A stretch of DNA of 64,000 nt. It comes from Vermamoeba vermiformis. Lineage: Eukaryota. The notes beneath the pieces are model-generated. The model was not told where the DNA came from and did not search any database. It was given only the letters and a program-made list of their open reading frames with translations. The position numbers and the translations under genes were made by a program. The stretch covers positions 62,001 through 126,000 of the forward strand of contig JBEWZL010000270.1 of NCBI GenBank assembly GCA_045837725.1. The letters run 5' to 3'. Below, in pieces: positions 7,030-57,898 of the stretch (the stretch's first letter is position 1; each line of letters opens with the position of its first letter).

Positions 7030-10000
7030 TTAGTTGAATATTTTTGAAGCGTTTAAAACCCATTGAGCAACGAGTTGCACTTCCATCTGATTTCTTTCGA
7101 ACAGATCATCTCCTGACATTAGAATCTCTTGATCATTCGTGTAAAAGATGTTAGGAGTAAGTACCTATTATTAAAATTAGTTAACTTCGTGCCATTACTT
7201 TAAAATATTGAGTTCACATTCCGGATTCCGTCTACCGAAATAGAATCCCTTTTCGCCCTCTAATATTCGCTAACTTACGGTCGATAATGGTACGGCACGC
7301 ATTCGGTTACGTTCTGCATTCTCTACAATCCTAAAATAAAAATTAGTCCTTTGTAACGGCTTTGGATCTCGGTCCAAATCAGTTTGGTCGGGTACCGCTA
7401 GTTTGCCCGTAATATTATTAACTATCACTTACTTTGATAATAGGTGGAATAATCGCGCGCAGGTTGCGTAGTTAACTTTCGGTAGCGATTTGAAGATCTC
7501 TCGGGATTGATTAATGAAATCATCAAGCTCCTTCAGTTCTATTATAGCAGTATTAATAAGCCATTATGATATCAAATGTTTAGTCAAGTTTTCGCTGGAT
7601 CAGCCAAGAAATGTAAATTTCGGCTGTGACTTACGATGAAGAGCATAGAGCTTATTGTACGCTTTGAATGTTAATAAAGGCTCTGGTAGCTCGCGTAGAA
7701 ATGACTTGAGAATAGCTACAACCGTATGCGGATCCAAAATACCAGCGAAGTTAACGTGACCTATCGTAATGTTAAATATCTATTCCGCTATGCTGTTGTG
7801 TGAGGTAATAGTTTCATATTTTTAATAATTCGCATGATTTATTGCGAATTTGAAACAGCCAGACCCAGATCGGTTTTTCGACCCGCATCTCGACAGCATC
7901 AGTAAACAAAAAATTAAATAGTACGCGACACGTCAAAACAAATGATCGTGCGCGATGAAATAAATATGCGTTGTTTTGTACAAATAAATTAAAATAAATG
8001 AAAAAAACTATCTACGAGTAAAATGGATGCAGTGGTTGGAGGTGCGGCCAAATGAATGGAAGCAGGCGAGTGAGGGTGAGGAGGGAGATAATAGGTCGGA
8101 GAGAGGGTGGTACTCGTCACGTAGCAGCCTTTACGACGAAGGATTGCTTGAGCTATCGTCTTTCGTCTCTTTGGGTTTCTCGTCAACGTGCTCGGGAGCA
8201 GAGATTGACACATTGACAGATGTCTCGATGACAGGTGTCACTGGAGCAACTTCAGTCTCTTTCTTGACTTCAGCTTGCTCGGGGATGTCATTGAGCATTG
8301 CCTCGAGGTTTTGCAGCTCAGTGCCGAGCTTCTCGCGACTAGCAGGTGTGTCAGGCTCACGGGGGCTAGTCTCTGCAGGGATGGTTGCGGAGGCACGAGG
8401 ACTGATAGACAAGTCCAACGTGTTCAGTTGATTCTCTAACTCGTCAAGTTTTGAACCAACAGACGACAACACACTTCGTGTTTGTTCCTCGATGTGCGTC
8501 TGGTTCTCGGCACGTGCTTTCTCGGTGGACTCGAGCTTGAGTTTCACCTCAGAGCCTGAGTTGCTCGTGGGAGCTTGGGACTTCTCTGAGGTAGACTCAG
8601 TGAGCTGAGGACGAGGGCTGTTGATTGAGGACTCGAGGTCGTTTGCTGGTTCAACGACCACAGCCTTCTTCTTGCGATTGAGAACCAAATCTCCTGAAGC
8701 TTCATCACGCGGTGAGGTCTTCTCGACTTCTTCTTTCTTGCGTGGAGTTTTGGGCTTCAGTTTTTGCAACCACTTGGGAGATTTCTTGCCCTTCTTCTCT
8801 TTCTCGTCGGATGAGCTCGAAGATTCTTCTTCAGCTCCAGCTTCGGCCTTCTTGTCCTTTTTCTTGGGCTCTTTTTCAGGTTTCTCTTTCTCTTTCTCTT
8901 TCTCTTTTTCAGCAGGCTTTTTCTTGCTTTCTTTCTCAGCCTTCTTGCGCTCTTTTTCTTCGCGCTCTTTCTCCTCTTTCTCTTTCTTCTTGGCCTCTTT
9001 TTCAGCCTTTTTCTTAGCGCTTTCCTCTTTCTCTTTGCGCGCTTTTTCCTCCTTCTCGCGCTTCTTTTTCTCTTTTTCTTTGTCGTCCTCGCCGCTCAAG
9101 GCCAGTGGAGAGACTGTGCCCTGCTTTTCGGCCTTGACCTCCACCTTTGGGCTCGCAACCTCAACCTTGGCCTCGCCTTCTTTAGGTGCTTCGGGTTCCT
9201 TAACGGTGACTTCAGCAACTTCCTTGACTTCGTGAGCAGGCTCGACCTTGGCTTCAACATTAACTTCAGGTTCCTTCTCCGCAGCCTTGACCTCTGCTGT
9301 GGGAACTTCAACAACAGGCTCGTGTGCCTTTTCAGACTTCGATGATGAAGACGAGGAGCTTGAGCGAGATCGATTCTTAGTTTCGACCTCGACTTCAGCC
9401 TCGGGCTTCTTTTCTTCAACGGACTTGGTTTCAGTCTCGACTTTGACTTCCACCTCGACCTTCTTTTCCTCGCCTGACTTGTGCTCAACTTCAGCTGCAG
9501 GGACTGTCGCAACAGCGGCAGCAGCCTCGGGAGTTGAACCGGCCCTACTTTCGAATTAGTCATCTGGTTGTGAAGAAATGGTAAAGTAACTTACGGCAAG
9601 TTGACAGACATGTGCGCGTCAACAGGCTTGTACTCGTACTTGACGACTGACTCCGAGGAGCTAGACTCTTCTTTCTTGTCCTTGTCTTTCGTGGACTTCT
9701 TGAGCTCTTTCTTGTGGTCTTCGCCCGACTTGCTCTCAGGAGGCGTGGACTCGTCTTTCTTTTTCTTGTCCTTCTTCTCGTGCTTCTTGGCTTCTTTTTC
9801 AGCGGCCTCAGCCTCCTTCTTTTTCTTCTTCTCGAGCTCTTTGCGCTCCTTTTCAAGACGCTTTTCTTCGTCTTTCTTCTCTTTCTCGAGCTTCTTCTGC
9901 TCGTGGTCAACTTTCTTCTCTTTGTCTTTCTTCTCGTGCTTCTTGTCGTCTTTTTCAGCCGTACTGCTAGCTTCAGTTTTGTCTTCTTTCTTTTCAACTT

Positions 10001-12245
10001 TGTCTTTCTTTTCAGCACGGAACGACAACTTTTTGATGAAGCTCTTGAAGCGTGGCGAAGTAGCCGCGTGCTTCTTTTTCGCGCCTTCTTCATGCGGCTC
10101 TTCAACGGACTTTTCGGCCTTCTTGCTCGGAGTATCGGGCAAGGGCTGGGTGTTGATAGGGTGATTCGAATCCGCTATGCCGACCGAAATCGTGTGCGCG
10201 CGTTCAAGACGACGTGCTTGGCGCAAATCCTCTTGGCTAGTCTTTTTAACCATCAGACTGCCAGCGCTACGTTGACGAACTGGATCCTTCTTGCCATCTT
10301 TCTCCTTCTCCTCCTTTTTACTCTTCTTCTCCTCCTCACTCGAACTGCTCGATTCATCGGGCTTTTTCTCCGCTACGACCTCTGGCGAGGAAGTAGTTTC
10401 GTCGGCTGTAATATGACGAAGTGTTGCATCAATACCTCGGTAGATACAAGGTGCAATCGTTAAAACAATTAAAACGAAGTAAAAATAAATTTCTAGGAAC
10501 TCATCGAAGAATGAAACGAGCACTTACCGGTCTCCGCGATCTCTCCTTTGAGCTTATCGACCTCTTTCTTGCTCGCTGAAATTCTGAAAATGCCTTCTTC
10601 TTCCAATCCTACACATAATACGCCGTTAGCAAAATTAAAAATAAAATCATTTGTTTCATGGCCAGATGCGCCAAGAAAGATCTTTCTTTCTCAATTAAAT
10701 TAGCGTTACGTGACGTACCTTTGCTTTCAATATACTCGACAGCTTTATCAACAATAGCAGGGACGTCGGATCCATCCTTATTAGCGACTTGTTCAATGTC
10801 CTTGCCGAACGGATCGTTCTCGGGCTTGGCGATGTTGACCTCACTAGCAGGAGTACCTTTGTCGGACTTCTTCTTGTCGCCAATGCCAAAGCTGCTCTTA
10901 ATATTCTTCAGTCTGAGGGTACCAAACTTCTTCTCTGGCGGAGCTGCTGCTGCGGCCGCCTCGATCTGCTTCGCGATCGATGAGCCATGCAATTGCTCTC
11001 GTTGCTAAGAATAAGTGGTATCGTTAGTAAATGCCGTATTATAATATTTTTTAGCCACCGCCTTACCAATTCAATATAGTTCTTGTATTCTTCGATCTCG
11101 GGGATCAAAGTCACCATAAATCTGTTGCTGTTCACAAAGAAGTCTCGATACAGTTCCATATAATGCACCAATGAGCCTAACATCTCAGCTTCACTCAGTG
11201 CAATGGTATCTTGAAGCTTATCGACTGTTTCCATGCCGACTTGAGAGAAGTTCTTTCGCAGCTCTTCGACCTCGAGTTCAACCTGCGCAAATCCAGTTAA
11301 TACACGTGCAAATGGTAGGAGGCTCAAGTGAGTATCACTCATATAAATTTCATTTGGATTGAACCACGTCTAACTTACCTCTTTAATTTTTTCTTCCTTG
11401 GCCTTCTTGCCCAATCCGTTCAACTTCGAAATGCCAGCATCAAGCTCGACTCTAGCCTTCTCGAACTTGCTCTTTTGCATCTATATAATCGAATCAGATC
11501 ATAAATTCTCGTGTGACATATCGGGTAAGGCTCGATCGCGTGATCGGCTCGTGTTCCGTAAATCTGGCTTGAAAAACTTACCTTAGCTTCCTTGACGTCA
11601 ACTTCGATGACATTGTCGAGTGGTTCGTACACTTCCGAGACGATTTGCTTTCCCTATTAAAGTAATTGATTATTTTGTAACGGTCATATTTTTTTGCATG
11701 CGATCGAGAAACTTACCAACTTGGAGCGCAAATCATCGACGTGTCTTTGTACTTCAGCTACTTTATCTAAACTACCAGCTGCCCGAAAAAGAAACGTTAT
11801 TCATTGCAAGAATTAATGATCGGCATTGAGTAAATTTACCAAGCATGTATCGCAGAGGATCCTCGCGAAAACTGACGCCTCCGTCGACCAAAGAATCGCT
11901 GAGTTCGGCACCGGCCTCGAGCAAGGCTAAATAAATAGAGGGAGTGAGTTTCTTGTTATCGATTGAATGATCGGTCGAAATCTTTTTGTGAATTAATTTA
12001 AATATGGTCTCCATTAGATACTTGATTTTTATAAAAACTATGATCCACAACGAATGTAAATACGTACTCGACGTGGTCTTTTCTTGTTTGTGTATCTCCC
12101 TAGTAATTTTCTTGATCTGATTCGTCATAACCTCCAGTTTGGTAGATAATTCAGGCTCTTCAGGATAGGTCGTTACTTGTTCGGCAACGCCGATTTTTTC
12201 CTTCAATTTTTGATTGAAGATTTGAAAAGCTGATTGTTTGGCCAT
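7030..12245 (-). CDS. BAR-domain plus RhoGAP protein (SH3BP1/ARHGAP17-like architecture)
   Basis: Helical BAR-like N-terminus (QKLKEKIGVAEQVTTY..); RhoGAP motifs PFGKDI..VPAIVDKAVEYIESKGLEEEGIFRIS, then after intron 7761-10527 DPHTVVAILKSFLRELPEPLLT, LPKVNYAT, NAERNRM, LTPNIF. Confidence 0.85.
8131..10405 (-). CDS. Two in-frame exons (10405-9595, 9544-8131) encoding about 740 aa of Lys/Glu/Ser-rich low-complexity sequence inside the RhoGAP intron; alternative terminal exons or a nested gene
   Basis: Long stop-free ORFs joined in frame by a canonical 50-bp GTAAGT..TAG intron; CAG acceptor ending at 10406 is phase-compatible with the RhoGAP donor at 10527. Confidence 0.7.
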
Positions 12246-28983: not shown

Positions 28984-31900
28984 ATGACAGGACTGCCTTC
29001 GTCTACAAGGTAGTTATCATGTTTAAGATATTTACTAAGCTTCAATAATCTAACTTTGTTTAGATTTCGAACGCGACATCTGCACACGGCCAAGTCCTTG
29101 TTTTCTCCATCCAAAAAGAGTTCAATTGGAAGTGTAGAACCGATTGTGAATAGAGCAAGCACCGATACAAATATCCAATTACACAAAGACAATACACCAG
29201 CACCCACCCTACTCGATATCTCTATTCCTCTTCAGGAACGGCTTTCACAAATTGTTCGCAATGTACTCCGTGATGAAGTGAAGGTTGATTTTGCCGCTGA
29301 GCAACAAAAACTTGAAGAAATGCAGAGGCAACAATTTGGAAAATTCCTCAAAAAGCCATTCGTTTTCAATCCAACACCTCCTATGGGACGACAATTTGAC
29401 TTACGCTTCATGCCAAAGCATTTTAACGACCAAGTCTATGAGCAATTTGAACAGTGGGCAGTTGACCCTGTTTACCGTATTCATGCTTTGCGAGCAATTC
29501 CTGGTGCTGGAAAGACAGGTAAGTAACTTGATGTAGTGTACCTTAACTAATTGTAATCTAGCTGTCATGTTGAATGCTGTGGGAAGGAATACTTATCTTA
29601 TTTATGTGATGTGTGATCAGCATGAAATAGTATCTACTGATTATGTAAGTAATTTACCTTATTATAAACCTCATTAAATACTAATACTTCTTCAGAGAGA
29701 CTCCAGCTTTGTTGCATTTTTAACTTCTGGAGCAATGCAGGGAGCTATTGCAGAGAGTGATATTAAAAAGAGTACTGAAAGAATTATAGAGCTTTTACAA
29801 CTATTTTGGCTTGCTCGTCTCATGACATTGGATTATGTAAAACAAACATTTAACTATACTCCAGTTGAATGGCTTTACTGGTCTAACAATGCTGGCCAAG
29901 AAAAAATTGCTAGAATTCAAGAACAATTTTTATCATTAAAGTAAGATAGCACTGAAAATTTCTTTATGTACTAATTTGCAGCCTGCACAGAGGGTACCCA
30001 GGTGTAAACTCAGGGAGAGCTTTAACTTCCTGGGCGGAACGTTGAGCGGGGGTGTTGAGCGGGGACAATAATTTCTCCGTTTTTTTTGGCAGCCTCGCAA
30101 TAAATCGTCCCGCAATATTACTTTTAAATAATGAATAAAAATCAACACACAATGGCATATATTTTAATTATATGCTCGGTTGTGTTAGTTGATTCGCGCG
30201 CGCTTTTCGATTAAAATTCAAAACCGTTTTTTTGGTCATTGAATCGTTTTTCTCCATCAACGCACCACAAATGGCTGACCCAGAACCGGCGAAAGCATTG
30301 TCTGTAAGTGTTCGCACATTTTTAATCGGAGACTTTTTGTAACAATGGTCTTTATTCTTATAAAATACCAATTTTTCGTTTTTTCGAATCCGAATCTAAC
30401 ATGTTCTAAAAAAGGAAGGAAATAACGCTACCAGGAAGCGGAAACGAGGACGGAAAGAAACCAAAGGCCAGAAGAGGCGTCGTATTGTGTAAGTTGAATA
30501 TCAAAAGTGAAATTAAACCAGTTCTAATATTTAAAACAGTCAGGGTCAAACGGAGGAGGCTAAAAAAGACGGATGGGCTCTTTTAGAGCCCTTTCCTCTC
30601 CGCTATCGACAAACTGTGGTGCCCTCAATGTTGGCCTTTGCCCCAAATCAGCCTTTGTCTGCATTGGATTGCTTTAAGAAGCTCTGGACGCCTAAGTTTC
30701 ATGACGAATGGATGGAGGCTGTCAGCCAACACGTGACACTTCCTCATTCTGGATTTTCCGCTTCAAAGCGAGCAGTTAGTGGGTGGAATTACCTTGGCTT
30801 TCATCTACAATGCAAGACCAACCCCTTGGCTAACCTGAAAGCCTACTGGAAAGCAGACTTGGACCTACCAAGCCAAGATTTGGTTCTTCAGATCCATTCT
30901 GAACGAGACGCCTTAGATCAGTTTTATATGGCCAGCCTATTAAGCAACAACTACTGTGATGCTGTCACTGCAGGCTCTCACATCACTATTGATGAAATTG
31001 TGGCCCCTTCCTCCTTGGACTGTCCAGCTGTTACAACAATCATTCGAAAGCCTCATCCACACGGTGTTCTCATCTGGGCCTCAGGGGTCAAACTTGAGGG
31101 TATAACCCCATATGTGTTAAGGCTAGTGCCCAAAACTGCAGATATACACTCTTGGAGCACTGGTGCCATTGTCAAGGAGCTGATAGAGCCAATGAATAGC
31201 AACTTGAAGCGGAATTATACGATGGATGCTTGGTTTGACAGTGAGGCAGTGCGTGCATACATCACAAGAGCCGGCCAGTTCTTCACCTTAGGAGCTCATA
31301 CAGGCCATAACAAAAGCTTTTGGGATCAAGCTAAGGACGGCATCACCCCTTCCACATGGAAGCAATATGAAAATGCCTCTTCTAGCCTGCTGGCATCAGT
31401 GTTTTACGACAAAGGTGTGCATTGTTGCATTAGCTCAGCCTACCGAAAAGTCAACAAAATTAACCAAAAGCTTCAGCGGTGCCCGTTATCTGATATGTAT
31501 AAGAAGCACTTCAATGTGATTGACTTATTTAATCGGAACTTTTATCAGAATATGATTAAGCATCGACAAATGACTGTCGGTAAGGTTGTCTTTGATGCCT
31601 TGCTTCAGATAACCATCTTGAATGCAAGGGTGTTATACAACCATACTCACAATCAAAAGCCCATATCTGCCTTTGATTATATGTGCCAACTAAAGAAGGA
31701 GCTATTGGAAGTGAAGTGATACTTGTATTGTATCATTATATAATAAAATTCGACATTCTTTCAAAACCGGCTCAAGGGACCGGCTCAACATTCCGCCCAG
31801 GAAGTTAATTGATCAACTGATAAACAAGCACAAAGTTTGGATTGCAGTTGATGAAGCTCAAGTTGCTGGAGCACTATACAGTAACAAGATTATACAAAGA

Positions 31901-41343: not shown

Positions 41344-42564
41344 TTAACCCCAGCCGTAGAAAGTTTGATTGTTACCCAACAAGTGTGCGTGGCAATCTCT
41401 CGCAGCTCTGTCGCAGTTAGTCATCCACTGGTGCATGATCGTAGCGTTCCAACCGTTCCACCAATCAGCGTGATAGGAATAACCGCCGACTTCGCTCTCG
41501 CTGTACATATCCGACGACAATCGCCAGTACAATGGTGCGTCCTTCTCCTTGACGGGCCAGTTGATGTTGATCGTGATGACCGGGATCGCGACTGGATGCG
41601 TTGGCGGACATCTGCCGTAGTAAGGCCAGGCCATGTGACTCTTGTGATCAGGGCTGTCGAGATTGACACCGTCCCAGCACTGCGGGAAATCAATGCCAGC
41701 GTGAAGATAGTCGCCCACATCGCAATTGATCACGTGATTTGTTCGACCGTAAGTGGTACCATCAGCGCGTTGACATTCAAAAAGGCCTTCAGCTTGGTCC
41801 ACTGACATGGCCTTAGCGTTGCCAGAGATCATGCGAAGTCCGTGCGGCGGATCTTGCACCCATTGTGGCGCAATGCCGAGGTAACCAGTCTTGTAGTAGA
41901 AGATCGATGTTTTCGCCATCAGCGGAGTTCCATCACGCGTGTCGACCAGCGGAGCGACCCAATAGCCACTTCTATTCATGATACCACCAGGGCACGTCGA
42001 GTCACCGCTAGTAGTTAATGATTCGGTATTAGAATTGGCGTTGGTTCCTTTGTTGCCGAAAAACATGTGCAGATGCGATGCGCCAGGCTGACCAGGGAAC
42101 ACCACAGGATCGTCGAAGAGCATGTGGCTATAGTCGCATGAAATTCTGAAGGAGCCAATGTTGTCATCCGGAACTGCAGGCTCCTCATCCGTCGCGCGAA
42201 TGCGAAGATCAGAAAAACCGACATTGCCAGGAGGAATCTTAGTGACGTCAATAAGCGGTCCTCCGTTCTGGGGCTTAGTAGGAACAGTTGAAGTGTTCTT
42301 CGGGGTGAATAATTGGCATTCAGTCACTTTGAACGGGCCGTACCATCCGAAGTAGTCCCAGCTGCAGGTTCCGTAAGCAGTGTCTTGGAAATTTCGCCAG
42401 TTAGTGCCATCGCCATATCTAATTATTCTAAAGCCAGGCAACGGAAGCGTATATTGTTCGCCTTCTCCTGCGATCTTCGTCCAGGTGCCTTCAGGTAGTG
42501 TAAAAACACAAAACGCGCTTGAAACAAGCAACGCCAATGCAAATAATACTAAATTTACTTTCAT
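41344..42564 (-). CDS. Secreted DUF1996-domain protein, copy 1, intronless
   Basis: Signal peptide; FRISC..SHMLFDDPVVFPGQPGASHLHMFFGN, NRSGYW, FPQCWDGVNLDSPDHKSHM, CPPTHPVAIP, HADWWNGW. Confidence 0.88.
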   Translation of the reverse strand: MKVNLVLFALALLVSSAFCVFTLPEGTWTKIAGEGEQYTLPLPGFRIIRYGDGTNWRNFQDTAYGTCSWDYFGWYGPFKVTECQLFTPKNTSTVPTKPQNGGPLIDVTKIPPGNVGFSDLRIRATDEEPAVPDDNIGSFRISCDYSHMLFDDPVVFPGQPGASHLHMFFGNKGTNANSNTESLTTSGDSTCPGGIMNRSGYWVAPLVDTRDGTPLMAKTSIFYYKTGYLGIAPQWVQDPPHGLRMISGNAKAMSVDQAEGLFECQRADGTTYGRTNHVINCDVGDYLHAGIDFPQCWDGVNLDSPDHKSHMAWPYYGRCPPTHPVAIPVITININWPVKEKDAPLYWRLSSDMYSESEVGGYSYHADWWNGWNATIMHQWMTNCDRAARDCHAHLLGNNQTFYGWG

Positions 42565-43074
42565 GGCTTGTTTAAAGTTACTGAAAAATAATTACACTAC
42601 CGATTTTAGCTTTTATTTTAGTTTACGAGATTTTTGTGATCCAAAAGACTCGTCACATCCAAAACAAATGTGATCAAAATGTCACGTATAATGTACAAGA
42701 TAGATAGTAATCTAGCTATCTAACTCGCATATAATCAATCGCTGACTTACTATTATTTGACACTAACCAATGATTCAAATTCGTAGCCCGAGCTGAATTT
42801 TCATTGGATCCGTTAAAATCCAGGCAGCGCACATTGAACCGATAAACTAGGCGCTTAATACAGCGAGTCAGATCGAACGTATTGCTTTGCCTAGTCATTG
42901 AGTAAGTTTCAGAAGTTGTCCCATTGTACACATCCAGCAGTATTAGTGAATTCGGATGTGACGACTGAGTTGTCACAATTGACCAATAAGATTTGACGAG
43001 TGGACGAAAAGCAAATTTAAATTATTTTGGTTAATTGAATCATTGTTAAGATATCAAATCGTAATCAAGCCACG

Positions 43075-43743
43075 ATGCGCTCGACTATTATATTTATTGC
43101 TGTTGTATTAACGTTAGCCAGCGCTGCTACGAAGACTTGCCAACCCACATCCGGCATCGCGAACTCACTTTGCGGCAACGAAACTCACAACGCTTACGTA
43201 ATTCCTGCTAAAGTCTGCGCATATGGTCCTGTTGATGTATCAGCTACTTCATGCGTGGCACAAGTGTTCAATACCTGGCAGTTGGTCTGTCCGAAAAGAA
43301 ACAAAGATCTGACGAGCTTTTGTCAAGGCTGGGGTGGTTTTGAAAATATTGATTATTCTTCACCTTGTTGGGTACTTCAAGAGTGCACCAGCGACGCTGA
43401 CTGTGCTGCAGTTGATCCTCCGTTCGGTCCTAGTCAAACTAAGAAGTGCTACGAGTGCTGCGAGTTGTGCTACGACGACTGCGCATCCAGAGTTGGTGAC
43501 TGGTACGCCGCTCAGGGCGATACAGACTGCACGCCTTGCCCATACACAGCTACTCCTCACACTTTGCCGCCAATTTCTCCGGTCGCACATACCTCTCCCG
43601 TAAGCGACAACTCCCCATCCAGTACTAATACTCCATCAAAGTCTTCAAGTCCTAGTGGTAGCAGCAGCAACATTTCTTCGGGATGGACCGTTCAACCCTT
43701 CGTCTTTGCCGCTCTAGTTTTGCCGATGATCGCTGCTTTCTAA
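43075..43743 (+). CDS. Cys-rich secreted, probably GPI-anchored protein, copy 1
   Basis: Signal peptide, Cys-rich domain, Ser/Pro/Thr stalk, hydrophobic C-terminus. Confidence 0.8.
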   Translation: MRSTIIFIAVVLTLASAATKTCQPTSGIANSLCGNETHNAYVIPAKVCAYGPVDVSATSCVAQVFNTWQLVCPKRNKDLTSFCQGWGGFENIDYSSPCWVLQECTSDADCAAVDPPFGPSQTKKCYECCELCYDDCASRVGDWYAAQGDTDCTPCPYTATPHTLPPISPVAHTSPVSDNSPSSTNTPSKSSSPSGSSSNISSGWTVQPFVFAALVLPMIAAF

Positions 43744-43983: not shown

Positions 43984-45174
43984 TTAATAGAACATCTGAT
44001 TGTTGCCCAACAAGTGCGCGTGACAATCAGCCGGAGCTCTGTCGCAGTTCTCCATCCACTGGTGCATAATTGTCGCGTTCCAACCGTTCCACCAATCAGC
44101 GTGGAAAGAATAACCGCCCGGCTGACTTTCATCGTACATATCTGATGACAATCTCCAGTGCAATGGCGCGTCTTGTTCTTTCACCGCCCAGTTGATGTTG
44201 ATCGTGATGACTGGTATCGCGACTGGATGTGTTGGCGGACATTTGCCGTTGACAGGGAACGACATGTGGCTCTTGTGATCAGGGCTGTCGAGATTGACGC
44301 CGTCCCAGCACTGCGGAAAATCAATGCTCGCGTGCAATCGTTGCCCGACCGCGCAATTGATCACGCGATTGGTCCTGTTGTACCCGCCCGCATCGTCTTG
44401 ACACTCCCAAGTACCCAAGCCGTCAGTCGATGCCATGGCCTTAGCATTGCCAGAGATCATGCGGAGTCCGTGTGGCGGATCTTGCACCCATTTCGCGGAA
44501 ATTCCGTAGTAGCCCGTCTTGTAGTAGAAGATCGAGGACTGCGACATTAAAGGCGTTCCATCGCGTGTATCAATAATAGGTGCGACCCAATAGCCACTTC
44601 TATTCATGATACCGCCAGGGCACGACGAGTCGCCACTAGTAGTTAATGATTCGGTATTCGAGTTGGCATCTGTTCCGGTATTGCCAAAGAACATGTGCAG
44701 ATGCGACTCGCCAGGCTGACCAGGGAAGACAATAGGGTCATCGAAGAGCATATGGCTATATCCACATGAAATTCTAAATGCTCCAACACCATCTCCTGAA
44801 GGTGCAGGTTGCTCATCGGTATGCTGGATGCGAAGATCAGAATAGCCGCCATTGCCAGGAGGAATCTTAGTGACGTCAATAAGTGGTCCTCCATTTTTAG
44901 GCTTAGTGGGGACGGACGTGTCCGTTGGGGTGAACATCTGGCATTCATTTGGCGCAGGTGAACTATACCATACAAAATACGTTCTGCTGCACGTTCCATA
45001 CGCTGAATCTTGCAAGTATCGCCAGTTGGTGCCATCACCAAATCTAATTACTCTAAAGCCAGGCAATGGAAGCGTATAGTTTTCATTTTCGCTCGCGATC
45101 TTCGTCCACGTACCAGCGGGCAAACTATAGGCGCTAGAAACAAGCAATAAAAATACAATTATTAAATTGTTCAT
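43984..45174 (-). CDS. Secreted DUF1996-domain protein, copy 2, intronless
   Basis: Paralog of 41344-42564 with the same motifs; start MNNLIIVFLLL. Confidence 0.88.
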   Translation of the reverse strand: MNNLIIVFLLLVSSAYSLPAGTWTKIASENENYTLPLPGFRVIRFGDGTNWRYLQDSAYGTCSRTYFVWYSSPAPNECQMFTPTDTSVPTKPKNGGPLIDVTKIPPGNGGYSDLRIQHTDEQPAPSGDGVGAFRISCGYSHMLFDDPIVFPGQPGESHLHMFFGNTGTDANSNTESLTTSGDSSCPGGIMNRSGYWVAPIIDTRDGTPLMSQSSIFYYKTGYYGISAKWVQDPPHGLRMISGNAKAMASTDGLGTWECQDDAGGYNRTNRVINCAVGQRLHASIDFPQCWDGVNLDSPDHKSHMSFPVNGKCPPTHPVAIPVITININWAVKEQDAPLHWRLSSDMYDESQPGGYSFHADWWNGWNATIMHQWMENCDRAPADCHAHLLGNNQMFY

Positions 45175-45682
45175 TTGTTGTCGCCGTGTGTTGAACGGAA
45201 ATAAATAAAATTGCAATAAAAATCTCTCAGTAGATTTTCTGACCCTGGAAAAGCTATGTAATGCAGGACAAATAGCGAATCTCGTTGCAATACTCGAAAT
45301 AATGCGTAGGTACTACGAAAGATGACGATTTTGATCACCTTTCTCTTTAGAAAGGTTGATTCAGTTAAGTAAGGCTAAGCTTGATTTTCTCCGCTCTGCC
45401 TCGTGCTTTTAGTCTGAAACTAATAGAATATGCGTCATACATAGTAATCTACCGGAAGGCATTCAAAATGCGCTTAAAAGAAGCGTTTAAACGATACTTA
45501 CAGACTTTACCGCTCCGTACAAGCATAACGAAATGTTCTCATGGAAAGAAGAGGTTATACTGCGTCTAGTCAAGTTATATGGACCCTATTTAAGAAGGAG
45601 AATCAGTCTCGGTCGACGTGACTTTAAAGTTTGATTCTGGCCAAATTTAGTATTATTCTACTTCAACTTGAAAGCGAACACC

Positions 45683-46288
45683 ATGCGAGCTATATTATTA
45701 TTTTTGATATTTGTATTTGTTACCTTCGCTTATGCAGCGACAAAGACTTGCCAACCCACATCTGGCGTAGCGAACTCACTTTGCGGCAACGAAACTCACA
45801 ACGCTTACGTAATCCCTGCTAAAGTCTGTGCATATGGTCCTGTTGATGTATCAGCTACTTCATGCGTGGCACAAGTGTTCAATACCTGGCAGTTGGTCTG
45901 TCCGAAACGAAACAAAGATCTGACGAGCTTTTGTCAAGGCTGGGGTGGTTTTGAAAATATTGATTATTCCTCACCTTGTTGGGTACTTCAAGAGTGCACC
46001 AGCGACGACGACTGCAATGTAGTCACTCCTCCAGCGGCCGCATCGGCATCTAAAAAATGCTACGAGTGCTGCGAGTTGTGCTATGACGACTGTGCATCCA
46101 GAGTTGGCGATGAATATGCAGCACAAGGTGATACTAATTGCACACCTTGTCCGTACACAGCGACTCCTCACACTTTGCCGCCAATCCCGACCACAACTCC
46201 TGGTGGAACGAAGTTATCAACTGGATGGAGTATTTTACCATTGGCTATTACTTTCTTAATTATGGTGATGGTTGCTGTATTTATATAA
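45683..46288 (+). CDS. Cys-rich secreted, probably GPI-anchored protein, copy 2
   Basis: Paralog of 43075-43743 with a near-identical core; start MRAILLF. Confidence 0.8.
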   Translation: MRAILLFLIFVFVTFAYAATKTCQPTSGVANSLCGNETHNAYVIPAKVCAYGPVDVSATSCVAQVFNTWQLVCPKRNKDLTSFCQGWGGFENIDYSSPCWVLQECTSDDDCNVVTPPAAASASKKCYECCELCYDDCASRVGDEYAAQGDTNCTPCPYTATPHTLPPIPTTTPGGTKLSTGWSILPLAITFLIMVMVAVFI

Positions 46289-46532: not shown

Positions 46533-49131
46533 ATGGAGAACACTAAGGTCCCTATACAAAAGCTGCACGTTCGAAATATTTTTCAATTATTCGTCCCGAT
46601 CAGCTCGAATATTAAATACGACGTTGCTTTAACGACAACACCAAGTTTTGGATTTACATTGACGCAACAAAATGCACCAGAATTTTGTTACCATTATCAA
46701 ATACAATTATTTGCAAATGACAAAAATATGAAAGGCGAGATTGTGGAAACGGAAGCGGTGGATTGTTTCAGTTGGGCCAAAAGAAATCCATTTATTATTC
46801 AACCGAACCACGAGGAAGCTGGCATTACATTACGAATGAAAATAGACCACGGAACATTTGATTTTCGCAAGATCAAAAAGCGTCCGATCAAGATCTACGT
46901 AACCTGCTTCAGCGCTGGCGTCTTCTTGCAACGAGGCTCCACCAAAATATGCAAATTATTACCGAAGAAGCGCCATGCAGAGTATTCTAACGTAGATTCT
47001 GAAGGTAAAGCAACAACAGTAAACGTCAGAATCAATCCGGAAACATTTCAATTTACGCGGTCAAACATATGAATTGTCTCGCCATATAATTCAATAGCCT
47101 TATTAAACCTATTTTACGGAATTAATCCTCGTTTAAATCAACTCTAACGAAAACTTTTTTTTAGTGTTGATCCCGGTGTCTTGGAATAACACCAATCTCG
47201 CTCTAGTTCATCCTACTAAAATAGAACCTGCACATGACAGTTCATATTCTGACCGCAGAACGTCCGAAGACAATTCTTCGCCGGATGTAGGCGATAACGA
47301 CGCGGAGTCAAATTCCATGCAGATCATGAACAGCTACGACGTCGATATGTCGCCGAGTTACGAGCAAGAACAACACCCTATTCACCCGCCAGTAGTCTTC
47401 AATAGCCACCTTCAAATGCACATGCGGTAAGTGATTTGTGGATTCGGAGCCGCAGTACGGATTTCGGTCTTAAACTTCATAAGCTTTTCCGTAATTGAAT
47501 AAGTTACTCATTAGTCATATTACTATATTATAGCGATTTCGAAAATGAGCCTTACATGCTATTGGTCAATGGCAACGCGGAAGTCGTCGGAAATTTTCGA
47601 GCGCTCAACTTTTACAAGGCTTCAGATATCAATATAAAAGAAGATATTAGGCTCTTATGCGAAGGTAATCATTTTGCGAATTTAGTCTCGCGGTAGTACA
47701 TTTCGGAACGTTATGTCGAAGTTGCAATCATTGACATTTTTTTTGACACTTTGACACTTTTAGATCGAGATCCGAGAGAAGCACTGCTGAAGATTGACGG
47801 AGTCGAGTACAAGTTCAGGAGTGGTGTAGGACATACTACGAACAAACGCTTCGTCGGTTACATCGCCCAACAGATTGAAAGTATTGTGCCTGAAGCCGTT
47901 CAATTGATTGACGGTAAGTTTTTTTTTTACCTAATTCAATTGAAGAAAGTACTTTCTTACGGAAATATTTATTTGTTGCGCAATTTAAGTAATTCAATTA
48001 ATTAATTATAATTTAGGGATTTTGCACGTTGATTACGAGTCGCTGATCCCGTACTTGAGCGAATCTGTCAAACAGAATTTTAACGATATTAAGAACGTTA
48101 AATCCGAAACCGAACGAATTCAAAAAATCGTCGATTTATTATACGCAGAATTTTTGAAGAAAAGCAAGATTGAAGAGAAGATCAATGGATCAACATCCAA
48201 AACACCATCAGTTACCGAGAAGATGCCATTTTTTGGCAAGAAGTCATTGTTATACTCCATAATCGCCGTAACATTGGTTATCGGAGCCGCAATTGGCATA
48301 TTTTTGGCGATAACGTTCAGTACATCCGGAGACCCATCCGATGATAAGCCGACAGCTACCGTTCCGTTGTATCAGTTCGGAGGTCTAGACCCTAGCAATG
48401 ATATTCCTGAAGAGCGACAAGCGTTAATTGATTTATTTATGGCGACTAATGGCTCGAATTGGAAATTGAAAGCAGGCTGGCTCAAAAATACCTCGTACTG
48501 CTCGTGGTACGGAGTCTATTGCGGCGATGATCGAAAAGTGATTTCGCTGCGATTTGATAACAACAATTTAGAAGGCACCATTCCCGAGTCAATCGTTGCT
48601 CTAGATTCGCTCATCACTTTCGAAATCCGAAACAATTCGAAATTGACTGGAACACTTCCAAAGGCTATTTCTGAATGGAGAAAGCTCGGCACATTCGATG
48701 TATCCAACAATCAACTGAGCGGACAGCTGCCGAGGATGAATAGCGAAGAATTAATGGATTTTGTTGTCAGCAACAACAGATTTGACGGAACCATTCCGCT
48801 GATCAAAGCAATTAATTTCAATACTATCGCACTGGACAACAATCAACTCACTGGAAGTATTTACAATCTGAAGGACCTCAACTTCGTCGCGAAATTTCTG
48901 ATCAACAACAACAAACTGACCGGCGATCTAATGTTATCGAAGAACTTTTTGCTCTCAGTAGATACATTCGACGTCTCTAACAATCAGTTCACCTCGACTG
49001 TTGAAATTGCTAGGCTCCCTGCCCCACAAACGGCGATCAATTTCAAAAGATGCAACGTATCTAGCAATATTTGGGATTGCCCTATTCCTTCGTGGATGCG
49101 AGAATTCTGCGACGGAAATTGTACAGTATAA
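46533..49131 (+). CDS. MYRF-like membrane protein: beta-rich N-domain, peptidase S74/ICA autocleavage domain, coiled coil, TM helix, C-terminal LRR ectodomain; 5 exons
   Basis: Exons 46533-47004, 47165-47426, 47534-47664, 47764-47912, 48017-49131 join in frame; VNGNAEVVG..YKASDINIKEDI, GYIAQQIESIVPEAV, LHVDYESLIPYL; TM LLYSIIAVTLVIGAAIGIFLAI; LRR cap ERQALIDLF..W..W..CSWYGVYC and N.L.G.IP repeats. Confidence 0.82.
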
Positions 49132-55454: not shown

Positions 55455-57898
55455 ATGGAGCACATACCGTTGGATGTATCTTTAAACATTTTCTCCAGAT
55501 TAGAGTTTTCAGATCGGATGAATCTTCTCAAGTAAATTGGCAAAAATAATCGTAATAATTTTCTTAGGATTTAAATAGAGTTTCAAAGCAAGTGAATGAA
55601 ATTGTGAGAGATGTGGTTTCAGTTGGCAACAGAAATTCATTAGATGGAATTATAATTGGACTTCCGAAAGCAGGTAATATACCGTCGTGAATATTCAATT
55701 TTATTTAATTAATAATTACTAATTAGTAATTTATTTTTTTCAGGATCTACAACCGTTTTTTGGCAGTTAGTAAATCAGAAAAAAGATCAATTCGACAATA
55801 GGCTCAATAAAAGCGTTAATATCTCCAATACTCCCGATATTGATACAACGAAGCAAGGTACCATTCAAAGATTTATGAGTTAAAAATATCTTTACAATTT
55901 CCTTTTAGGCTTACATTATCTGCGCCGCATTTCACTCAGTAATGAAGGACGAACAGCGATATTATTTCATGGCTCGTCTAAAAGTCCTACGAACAAGAAT
56001 ATGTATCCCTACTACGGTTTGGTAAGACCTCACAGATCCGAAAACTATATTAGTATCAATTATACTGATTTTTATTATCATTTTTAGGCCCAAGCTATTG
56101 TTATTGTTATTCCCGCGCAAATTGGCTCCGATTTCGCCGCGTTTAAAAAAAGTTTGAAACAGCTGCTGATGCCCGTCTTCGCGCTATGCGGACACATGAA
56201 CTGGATATTTGCGATCAACAAAATGGACTTGATTGAGTATAGCGAGGCAGGTACGTATAATTTTCATTAATGCCAAGCTCTAAATTATTGACTGTAACGA
56301 TTTTCGTTGATCCAAAGTGTTAGGGTCAAAAAAAACAAAATGACACGTGTCAACATTTATTTTTCACCAGTTGCCCATTTCAATATTGTGAACCATAGTT
56401 ATACAGTTCCAATAGTAGAATGCCTTGATAGTTTAAGACGACACGTGTCACTTATTCGATCTGGATCTAACTCGTGAGCATTTTAGCGTTCAATGAAGTT
56501 GTCACTATTGTCACTCAAGTCTGCCAGCAATTGAGTCAAAATATCGTGGACAAAGTCAGTTTTATTCCGATCTCTGCCACTCATTCGCAAAATCTATTCG
56601 AGAATATTTCCAAAAATGGAAATAACGACGTCCTGGCATGGTACAAAGGCCCTTCAGTGCTGCAAAAATTGACCGAAATTTCGTACACGGTGCAAATGCC
56701 GGCGTCTAAATTTGACAACGCGAATTCCAGCGTGGTAATTTTACGTTACAAATCGCTCGAAAATACAAAAAATATAGTGATACTTGCAAAAACTCAAAGT
56801 TATTTGGTCTATGGATACATTACTCGTACGTCAAACACTTTGAAAAATGCTTATTCAAAATTCTCAGAATTAATTTAATTCTCAGAGGGCGCCATTGCCG
56901 TTGGCGACACGTTGTATTTGAAACCAAATTACTACAAGATGGTAACTTGCAAAAGAGCCGCGCCGAATAGCTATCCAATTCCCGTTAAAGTGCTATCAAT
57001 TAAGTACTTCGATAAGGAACGTAAAGAGGCATTAGTAGGGTAAATATTATTGCACTCATTTCGGTTGATAAAATTCAGTTGGATCGGATCTTCGCTTAAT
57101 TTTTTTATTATTAATTTAATATTTAACCTCATATTGTATGCTATGCAAAACAATTAATTTATTGTTGGTAGGACCTTTGTAGGCCTTCACATCCAGTTCG
57201 AATGTGAAAAGTACATCAAACAGTTTACTCGTTTGAATTATTATCAATATTTAGGCCTGCTAGACCACTTTATGATGCCGGTACGCCTTTACATCTCCAA
57301 TTATTACGTACTTATTTTTTTCAATCAGATCTACCATAGTTTATCAACCACCAAATTGGAAAAGAGTCCTATTCGTATTGCCACCGATCTCATCGTTGTA
57401 GCTTCAAAATCCGGTCATTGGGATGGAAAATTAAAGATCGTAAGCGACCTACCTACCTTAATTTTAATATATATTAAATTAACTCTGTTACTTTCATAGG
57501 GAACGACAGCAGGATTTTATTCGTACATTGCACGAGCTCACTGTAAAATTACTGAAATCGAATCCAGCACTGACGCCAAGGGCGAAAATTTCGTAGAAAA
57601 ACCTTCTTTCATTACAAAAGGTACAATTTTCATACTGCTCATTCGAGAAATAATATTAAGTGTCCTTAAATATTCTAACTGATTATTATTGTTAGGACAA
57701 CGAGCTCGAGTCGTACTGTCATTTTCAACGCCTTGCAAAGTTCGCGTGCATAAAAAAGACGGCACTGGTGAAGGCAGACTGTTGCTCGTGATGCACAACA
57801 AAGTGGTGGCTATTGGCGTCATAACGCGCATTGACCGATATGGAATTGACTCTGATGATTATTGGGCTAATCATAATGTGCTCCATATAGCCGTCTAA
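55455..57898 (+). CDS. F-box plus degenerate eEF1A/eRF3/HBS1-family GTPase fold
   Basis: F-box MEHIPLDVSLNIFSRL..LLKVSK; IIIGLPKAGSTT (G1 lacking Lys), HGSS in place of DAPG, KNM, INKMD, FIPISA, WYKGP, domain II YGYITQGAIAVGD, domain III GRLLL..KVVAIGVI. Confidence 0.75.

Follow-up and report, generated by a model that had tools for sequence, protein, structure and literature searches.

The stretch of Vermamoeba vermiformis DNA analysed here, referred to as the window, comprises 64,000 nucleotides (contig JBEWZL010000270.1 of assembly GCA_045837725.1, positions 62,001 to 126,000) of eukaryotic sequence with about 38% G+C and short introns. At 55455-57898 on its forward strand lies a gene whose product carries an N-terminal F-box followed by a body resembling the translation factor EF1A, and which we believe probably serves as a substrate receptor of a Skp1-cullin-F-box (SCF) ubiquitin ligase. 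Eleven exons join into a 1599-nucleotide open reading frame (ORF) of 532 codons and a TAA stop, beginning at the first ATG downstream of an in-frame stop, and all ten introns (47, 70, 51, 66, 236, 60, 132, 48, 60 and 75 nucleotides in order) have GT..AG boundaries. The exons are listed below in window coordinates, with slashes marking exon junctions within a motif; P0035 is a full-length relative on which much of the comparison rests.

Exon 1, 55455..55531, + strand: start codon and N-terminal half of the F-box, MEHIPLDVSLNIFSRLEFSDRMNLL; the last two bases belong to a Lys codon.
Exon 2, 55579..55673, + strand: remaining half of the F-box, VSKQVNEIVRDVV, followed by a linker and the first residues of a degenerate P-loop, GLPKA (55658-55672); collinear with P0035.
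Exon 3, 55744..55857, + strand: end of the P-loop remnant, G/STT (55744-55754), a shortened helix A*-A' and the switch-I region.
Exon 4, 55909..56021, + strand: beta strands of the G domain; the G3 remnant HGSS (55968-55979) replaces DxPG.
Exon 5, 56088..56250, + strand: core of the G domain, with an intact G4 motif NKMD (56217-56228).
Exon 6, 56487..56825, + strand: last part of the G domain, with FIPISA (G5-like) at 56561-56578 and WYKGP at 56639-56653; domain 2 begins in this exon.
Exon 7, 56886..57039, + strand: beta barrel of domain 2.
Exon 8, 57172..57280, + strand: end of domain 2 and a linker.
Exon 9, 57329..57439, + strand: start of domain 3, where P0035 has an insertion of about 27 residues.
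Exon 10, 57500..57620, + strand: domain 3, from the gene model and the P0035 alignment.
Exon 11, 57696..57898, + strand: last part of domain 3, then a short tail of unique sequence before the TAA stop.

The predicted protein aligns with P0035 over its full length, and 286 of the 511 aligned positions are identical (56%). Nine of the ten exon junctions fall in ungapped alignment and the tenth is collinear, P0035 having one extra residue after exon 9; at the junction of exons 1 and 2, LLK/VSK in the window protein is matched by LLRVSR. This collinearity at the junctions validates the gene model, including its long exon 6. An alternative splice form omitting 56735-56887, which would also stay in frame, is rejected by the P0035 alignment and by a contig from X5, a sequencing run of a close relative, that is unbroken over 56488-56823. 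A tblastn search with P0035 finds a single matching locus within the window, that of the gene itself.

P0034 (552 amino acids) and P0035 (547 amino acids) are full-length, uninterrupted ORFs on 3.4-kb contigs of sequencing-run assemblies. P0036 and the members of its cluster are genomic ORF fragments from the species of P0035, some of them on contigs of 505 and 590 kb, and they diverge from P0035 directly after GYVT, at the position of window intron 6; in P0038, which represents a third lineage, an in-frame intron is read through at this same position. Because the genomic fragments break there, P0034 and P0035 are taken to be spliced, cDNA-type sequences, and in both the F-box is continuous with the EF1A-like body.

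The F-box itself is recognised both in the window and in its relative. Exon 1 alone (25 residues, covering profile positions 2-24 of 43) matches the Pfam F-box profile with 20.3 bits (E 5e-4), the complete F-box of P0035 clears the cut-off of 20.5 with 30.1 bits, and the corresponding region of the window protein is identical to that of P0035 at 27 of 40 positions (68%). The exon 1 score and the full domain of P0035 together identify an F-box as defined by Pfam PF00646 or PF12937, and the three-domain EF1A-fold body behind it constitutes a separate C-terminal protein-interaction module. With an F-box present, a role as SCF substrate receptor is the natural inference, and a plausible one for a protein of this sequence. 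Canonical F-box proteins (FBXW, FBXL and FBXO) are similarly built, with an N-terminal F-box of about 40 residues and then a C-terminal protein-binding module, whereas the module here is an EF1A-fold pseudo-GTPase.

Assignment of the body to the EF1A fold is made through P0035, by its Pfam and NCBIfam scores, its collinear alignment with the window protein and its predicted fold; the domain scores and fold model given here are those of P0035, the window exons having been scanned as single pieces. P0035 exceeds the Pfam cut-offs for GTP-eEF1A_C (30.8 bits; cut-off 27) and GTP_EFTU_D3 (27.2 bits; cut-off 27), in addition to that for the F-box, and gives lower scores for GTP_EFTU_D2 (21.6 bits; cut-off 30.3), GTP_EFTU (15.5 bits; cut-off 26.5) and NCBIfam EF-1alpha (63 bits, E 1.4e-17; family cut-off 502), with the domains in the expected order of F-box, G domain, D2 and D3. 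An AlphaFold2 model of P0035 built from a 51-row alignment has a mean predicted local distance difference test (pLDDT) score of 76.3 and a predicted TM-score of 0.77, with low confidence in the F-box and the switch-I region, the stretch from G1 to switch I falling below a pLDDT of 50. Foldseek aligns this model to archaeal EF1A (aEF1A) and eEF1A at E 1e-31 with a target TM-score of about 0.8. A three-domain EF1A fold is thus found in a 56% identical relative with which the window protein is collinear. The first-pass annotation, which was made from the DNA letters, had proposed an F-box followed by motifs of all three translation-factor domains, and this architecture is borne out by the 11-exon model, the alignment, the Pfam and NCBIfam profiles and the fold.

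All five of the motifs singled out in that annotation (GLPKAGSTT, HGSS, NKMD, FIPISA and WYKGP) lie at the expected places in the spliced frame. In alignment A1 the canonical G1 motif GHVDSGKST corresponds to GLPKAGSTT in the window protein and GLPQAGSTT in P0035, so that Ser stands in place of the catalytic Lys; in the window the motif spans the junction of exons 2 and 3 (55658-55673 and 55744-55754). The G3 motif, canonically IDTPGH, reads FHGSSK in both proteins, with Asp and Gly replaced, and the longer string LFHGSSKS, standing where switch II would be, is identical between them. In switch I the canonical GITI corresponds to GLHY in the window protein and GMHF in P0035, which would replace Thr by His, this alignment being less certain than that of the other G motifs; the stretch from G1 to switch I is also some 17-19 residues shorter than in canonical EF1A. 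The window protein thus has neither an intact G1, nor the switch-I Thr, nor the DxxG of G3 with its following His, which most canonical library matches retain at G1 and G3 by a regular-expression check. Both the window protein and P0035 keep the determinants of guanine specificity, NKMD in G4 and the ISA of FIPISA in G5, and NKMD is also retained in the fragments P0039 and P0041.

P-loop GTPases that lose the P-loop Lys together with the Mg-binding Asp can no longer bind and hydrolyse GTP in the normal way. We infer from these replacements that the body is unable to hydrolyse GTP and is a pseudo-GTPase, in that a GTPase fold is kept, the catalytic motifs are lost and the gene is under selection; the earlier description of the GTPase motifs as catalytically dead agrees with this, and the same motifs are replaced in the 56% relative. 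The degenerate pocket appears to be conserved rather than decaying, since LFHGSSKS is identical and the G domain as a whole is 65% identical to that of P0035.

We note that ten full-size EF1A-like proteins among the 89 nearest library proteins (P0049, P0055, P0059, P0070, P0071, P0073, P0089, P0097, P0108 and P0115) keep GK[ST] but have no DxxG[HNQ] in a simple pattern check. Divergent EF1A-like proteins with a degenerate switch II may, judging from these sequences, be commoner than the F-box/EF1A-like family alone.

The same first-pass description had left the ancestry of the body open among eEF1A, eRF3 and HBS1, and the first of these stands while the other two fall. Among sequences in the Protein Data Bank (PDB), the best matches to P0035 are eEF1A2 (E 3e-9), aEF1A (7.5e-8) and yeast eEF1A (2.8e-7), whereas HBS1 chains match only at E 3.5e-4 to 5e-3 and no eRF3 chain in the PDB matches at E<=0.01. 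No HBS1_N domain is found in P0035 with Pfam, while 5 of the 89 library proteins carry one. Two trees, of 44 and 34 rows, were reconstructed; their backbones are unresolved, their rows are long, and the host's own eEF1A, eRF3 and HBS1 are not among them. In both, the pair formed by the window protein and P0035 lies among divergent EF1A-type sequences, outside the HBS1 clade (98 and 99, both starred) and the CysN clade (99, starred), although the tree tool warns that long rows can be wrongly shut out of clades. The pair also lies outside the aEF1A clade of P0002-P0009, which is starred (95) only in the 34-row tree, and two of its tree neighbours, P0055 and P0086, also rank closest to EF1A-type chains in the PDB. 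An HBS1, eRF3 or CysN origin of the body is rejected on the PDB sequence ranks and the two trees, and by these sequence comparisons the body is of EF1A type, with no finer placement claimed. It shares with eEF1A and aEF1A the order of G domain, D2 and D3 and the NKMD, SA-type G5 and WYKGP motifs; it differs in the replacements described above (G1 Lys by Ser, DxPG by HGSS and, by alignment, switch-I Thr by His), in its N-terminal F-box and shortened A*-A' insert, and in an identity of 17-19% in structural alignments with the P0035 model.

Few relatives of this gene were recovered. With exon 6 as query a single protein was found, P0001 (55% identical, E 1.5e-28), whose 90% cluster has seven members, P0034 and P0035 among them. 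A HMMER search over 1.84 billion representatives returned 89 proteins at E<=1e-3, only three of which reach E<=1e-10, all of them exon-size fragments (P0036, P0037 and P0038); P0039 and P0041 are weaker fragments. A Pfam F-box is present in just one of the 89, P0057, a 504-residue ORF from a EukProt transcriptome with an F-box of 25.1 bits, a GTP_EFTU domain of 48.7 bits and a D3/eEF1A_C domain. Although only 24-25% identical to the window pair, P0057 matches it in the distance between F-box and P-loop and in the unusual G.PQ.G form of that loop, and it groups with the pair in the tree with a Shimodaira-Hasegawa-like approximate likelihood ratio (SH-aLRT) support of 84. Its motif losses are the opposite set: P0057 keeps GK[ST] and DTPG, has Asn in place of the catalytic His (DTPGN), and has lost NKxD (INFM), whereas the window lineage lost GK[ST] and DTPG and kept NKxD. 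Because P0057 has this architecture with an intact P-loop, the fusion is presumably older than the loss of motifs, and the sequences suggest a single old fusion of F-box and EF1A whose lineages lost different motifs, the alternative being an independent fusion.

A word-index search with profile A2 found only P0057 and two ordinary EF1A/CysN-type proteins. Scans of metagenome contigs with P0001 and P0127, and of viral contigs with profile A2, P0057 and P0035, yielded no relative, such scans depending on a few exact peptide patterns. A feature search of the Atlas returned EF1A-like clusters, many from Nucleocytoviricota, with a score of 0.84, for which the three viral contig scans gave no support.

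Evidence for transcription and splicing was sought by comparing the locus with four sequencing runs, X5, from a close relative, and X11-X13, RNA sequencing runs labelled as the window species. The X5 contigs derive from a closely related sister organism, about 95% identical, with divergence of individual pieces ranging from about 1% to 9%. Missing from these contigs, at GT..AG sites, are introns 3 (51 nucleotides), 4 (66 nucleotides) and 9 (57439 to 57500, 60 nucleotides). Intron 6 is also skipped, in a record that runs unbroken over 56488-56823 and then continues at 56886 with two replaced letters at the joint (record 2), and so is intron 8, with a joint from 57275 to 57328 and four replaced letters. 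Loose ends at 57040 and 57173 carry sequence of the neighbouring exons, and since these match the exons on either side, intron 7 is evidently removed as well. We also observed an in-frame insertion of six nucleotides behind 56627 in the X5 transcripts, in two variants (ACAGCA and ACGGCA), which suggests that two alleles or copies are expressed.

Between the window and X5, 40 differences are listed, of which 38 are in coding sequence, where they fall within 34 codons (20 synonymous and 14 non-synonymous). By Nei-Gojobori site counts over the 321 covered codons, the ratio of non-synonymous to synonymous substitution rates (dN/dS) is 0.18, or 0.24 if six unlisted differences were all non-synonymous; the comparison among relatives that had been suggested at first sight of the gene therefore departs from neutrality. 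The gene is under purifying selection, and the spliced contigs and the low dN/dS together show that it is expressed and constrained in the sister organism. At the greater distance of P0035 the regions differ in conservation, with identities of 68% in the F-box, 65% in the G domain, 44% in domain 2 and 48% in domain 3. The locus is a real, intact, conserved and functional protein-coding gene.

What F-box proteins do is defined by what their C-terminal module grips. With moderate confidence we propose that the recognition module here is a complete three-domain EF1A-fold pseudo-GTPase, and that the protein is an SCF receptor which, through its F-box and Skp1, presents a partner of EF1A-family factors for ubiquitination. 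Binding of the F-box to Skp1 would make the protein the receptor subunit of an SCF ligase; the body, held closed like a translation factor and without GTP cycling, would bind a partner that normally recognises EF1A-family factors; and the bound partner would thereby be presented for ubiquitination. Bodies of the EF1A family bind eRF1/Pelota-type proteins, the exchange factor eEF1B, aminoacyl-tRNA and the ribosomal factor site. Given these known protein partners, one of them is the likeliest class of target, the candidates being an eRF1/Pelota-type protein, eEF1B or the ribosomal factor-binding site. The P0035 model is drawn closed, as indicated by target TM-scores of about 0.8 to GTP-form aEF1A with Pelota, ribosome-bound eEF1A and Hbs1l, as against 0.40-0.46 to GDP forms.

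Several observations weigh against this proposal. The closed shape of the model may be a mere habit of AlphaFold with the EF1A family, and the conserved NKMD and ISA mean that guanine nucleotide binding may persist. Exon 1 by itself falls 0.2 bits below the Pfam F-box cut-off of 20.5, and nine other exon pieces of the window, scanned singly, match no EF-Tu family at E<=10 (10 of the 11 exons were scanned). Even in P0035 the GTP_EFTU and D2 scores remain under the curated Pfam cut-offs, and the NCBIfam EF-1alpha score is far under its own. The grouping of P0057 with the window pair carries the tool's long-branch warning. The X5 contigs do not reach exons 1, 2 or 11, and the splicing of exon 1 to exon 2 is seen only in the 56% relative represented by P0034 and P0035; thus the first-pass proposal that RNA joins the F-box exon to the exons downstream holds in X5 for the downstream introns, and for the first junction only in that relative. 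Lastly, in X11, X12 and X13, of each of which 46-48% was read, just 1, 3 and 0 reads partly fitted the 3.2 kb examined, with 90-99% likeness; these runs also have zero reads on an exon of a neighbouring gene that is covered by X5, so that they reflect either no expression or no test of it.

The retention of NKMD and FIPISA, identical in the window protein and P0035 (with NKMD also present in P0039 and P0041), together with a G domain that is the best conserved region after the F-box at 65%, could be explained if the body were a non-canonical nucleotide switch. Such a body would still bind guanine nucleotide through NKMD, ISA and the glycine-rich loop, and the protein would be a nucleotide sensor whose capture of substrate depends on the ligand. 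We consider this rather unlikely: other residues stand in place of the P-loop Lys, of the Mg-binding Asp in DxxG and, as far as the alignment shows, of the switch-I Thr, and P0057 keeps G1 and DxxG but is without NKxD and the catalytic His, and, since P0057 and the window pair have lost different motifs, no set of nucleotide-binding motifs is conserved across the family. A different question is whether the F-box serves substrate ubiquitination at all, as yeast has non-SCF F-box proteins. It could instead direct rapid SCF-dependent turnover of the protein itself, or assemble a cullin-free Skp1 complex, with the body acting as a competitive mimic of EF1A-family factors. The architectural evidence from P0035, the alignment and P0057 fits this equally, but nothing in the sequence is specific to it, and the F-box, though the best conserved part (27 of 40), would fit any Skp1-dependent role; we judge the idea improbable.

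Much less credible is the suggestion, raised when the gene was first annotated, that the protein is a decoy or guard against eEF1A-attacking effectors of pathogens, the Lgt glucosyltransferases of Legionella among them. According to the relevant passages of PMC3245282, the Lgt acceptor is Ser-53 of eEF1A, in the helix A*-A' loop within the decapeptide 50-59, and the preferred substrate is the ternary complex with GTP and aminoacyl-tRNA. The window protein offers the general EF1A fold and little else that such an effector, as portrayed in those passages, would recognise: the region of the Ser-53 loop is unrelated, shortened by about 17-19 residues, without such a motif and modelled as disordered (pLDDT below 50), and with the G1 Lys and G3 Asp lost, the protein probably cannot form the ternary complex. 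With the acceptor loop missing the decoy idea is unsupported as far as that source describes the target, and a dN/dS of 0.18 gives no sign of an arms race. The least probable explanation, to which we give almost no weight, is a decaying or non-functional EF1A duplicate that happens to sit behind an F-box exon. Motif loss in G1, G2 and G3 would be expected of such a duplicate, as would the lack of reads in X11-X13, runs that are equally without reads on the neighbouring exon covered by X5. Yet no stop interrupts the frame across 11 exons, the degenerate motifs are shared with a relative of 56% identity, dN/dS is 0.18, spliced transcripts are found in X5 and in P0034 and P0035, and both X5 insertion variants stay in frame. 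A pseudogene is refuted for the family as a whole by the open 11-exon frame, the splicing in X5 and the dN/dS.

No description of an F-box paired with an EF-Tu/EF1A domain was found in open-access papers and bioRxiv, and the word F-box is absent from the full text of a survey of translational GTPases (PMC4342817). The combination of an F-box with an EF1A-like pseudo-GTPase thus appears to be undescribed, and it suggests that ubiquitination and the translation machinery are connected. If the protein is an SCF receptor, as we favour, the EF1A-fold module would direct SCF-type ubiquitination either at the ribosome or at partners of translation factors. How a translational GTPase turns into a pseudo-enzyme can also be followed in this family as a natural experiment, with two lineages that share a fusion and have complementary losses of G motifs.

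Two known systems bear comparison with it. Ski7 and HBS1 belong to the EF1A family and act in mRNA surveillance, Ski7 as an adaptor without the usual GTPase function. In Ski7 and HBS1, as proposed for the window protein, an EF1A-fold body would work as a binding module rather than in tRNA delivery, although neither Ski7 nor HBS1 has an F-box and the window pair lies outside the HBS1 clade. The other system is a fusion of an F-box to VLRF-1, a Vms1-like release factor, which is reported from Naegleria and some ciliates in a section of PMC6514570. This fusion likewise couples an F-box with a domain that docks at the factor site or A site of the ribosome, but the partner domain belongs to the eRF1 superfamily and not to the EF1A-type GTPase fold, and the two have no sequence relationship. 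By analogy, and to the extent that this section describes it, F-box/VLRF-1 may be regarded as a precedent for tying SCF to the quality control of translation, and the report of this fusion makes a ribosome-directed SCF adaptor a reasonable, if bold, reading. On that reading the gene would represent an old, sparsely sampled and undescribed family of eukaryotic F-box proteins, in which an EF1A-fold mimic, kept closed and competent for the ribosome, docks in A-site-like fashion on stalled or vacant ribosomes, or on an eRF1-, Pelota- or VLRF-1-type partner, and brings SCF with it; we regard this as a speculative proposal with a low probability of being correct. If true, SCF would through such docking have its own branch of ribosome-associated quality control, with a counterpart in the F-box/VLRF-1 fusions of Naegleria and ciliates.

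A 12-base palindrome, TGACACGTGTCA, occurs at two sites, 88 nucleotides apart, inside intron 5 of the F-box/EF1A-like gene, and at five further places in the window, its seven positions being 16347, 22087, 37790, 37845, 37907, 56341 and 56440. There are 13 strand matches where 0.07 are expected, one site matching on one strand only, and the three sites near 37.8 kb are spaced by 55-62 nucleotides. Because the flanks are unrelated, the palindrome looks like a candidate binding site with a CACGTG core and not like a mobile element.

Elsewhere in the window the following features were observed.

8131-10523, - strand: long low-complexity frames rich in Lys, Glu and Ser, in a stretch that departs in composition from the rest of the window (50% G+C, AT skew -0.39).
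30535-31719, + strand: a 394-residue open frame in which the C-terminal part of a piggyBac-type transposase domain (DDE_Tnp_1_7) is recognised at E 4.9e-6.
41344-42591 (- strand), 43984-45312 (- strand), 43039-43743 (+ strand) and 45635-46288 (+ strand): a tandem duplication of a two-gene block.
47989-49131, + strand: a single-exon protein with a plant-type LRRNT_2 cap and leucine-rich repeats (LRRs), and a weak match to a ComC-type LRR domain.

The duplicated block contains an intron-less gene for a DUF1996 protein with a signal peptide and a gene for a Cys-rich secreted protein. The nearest Atlas clusters to the DUF1996 gene are mostly bacterial (score 0.90), and the block is a candidate for horizontal acquisition.

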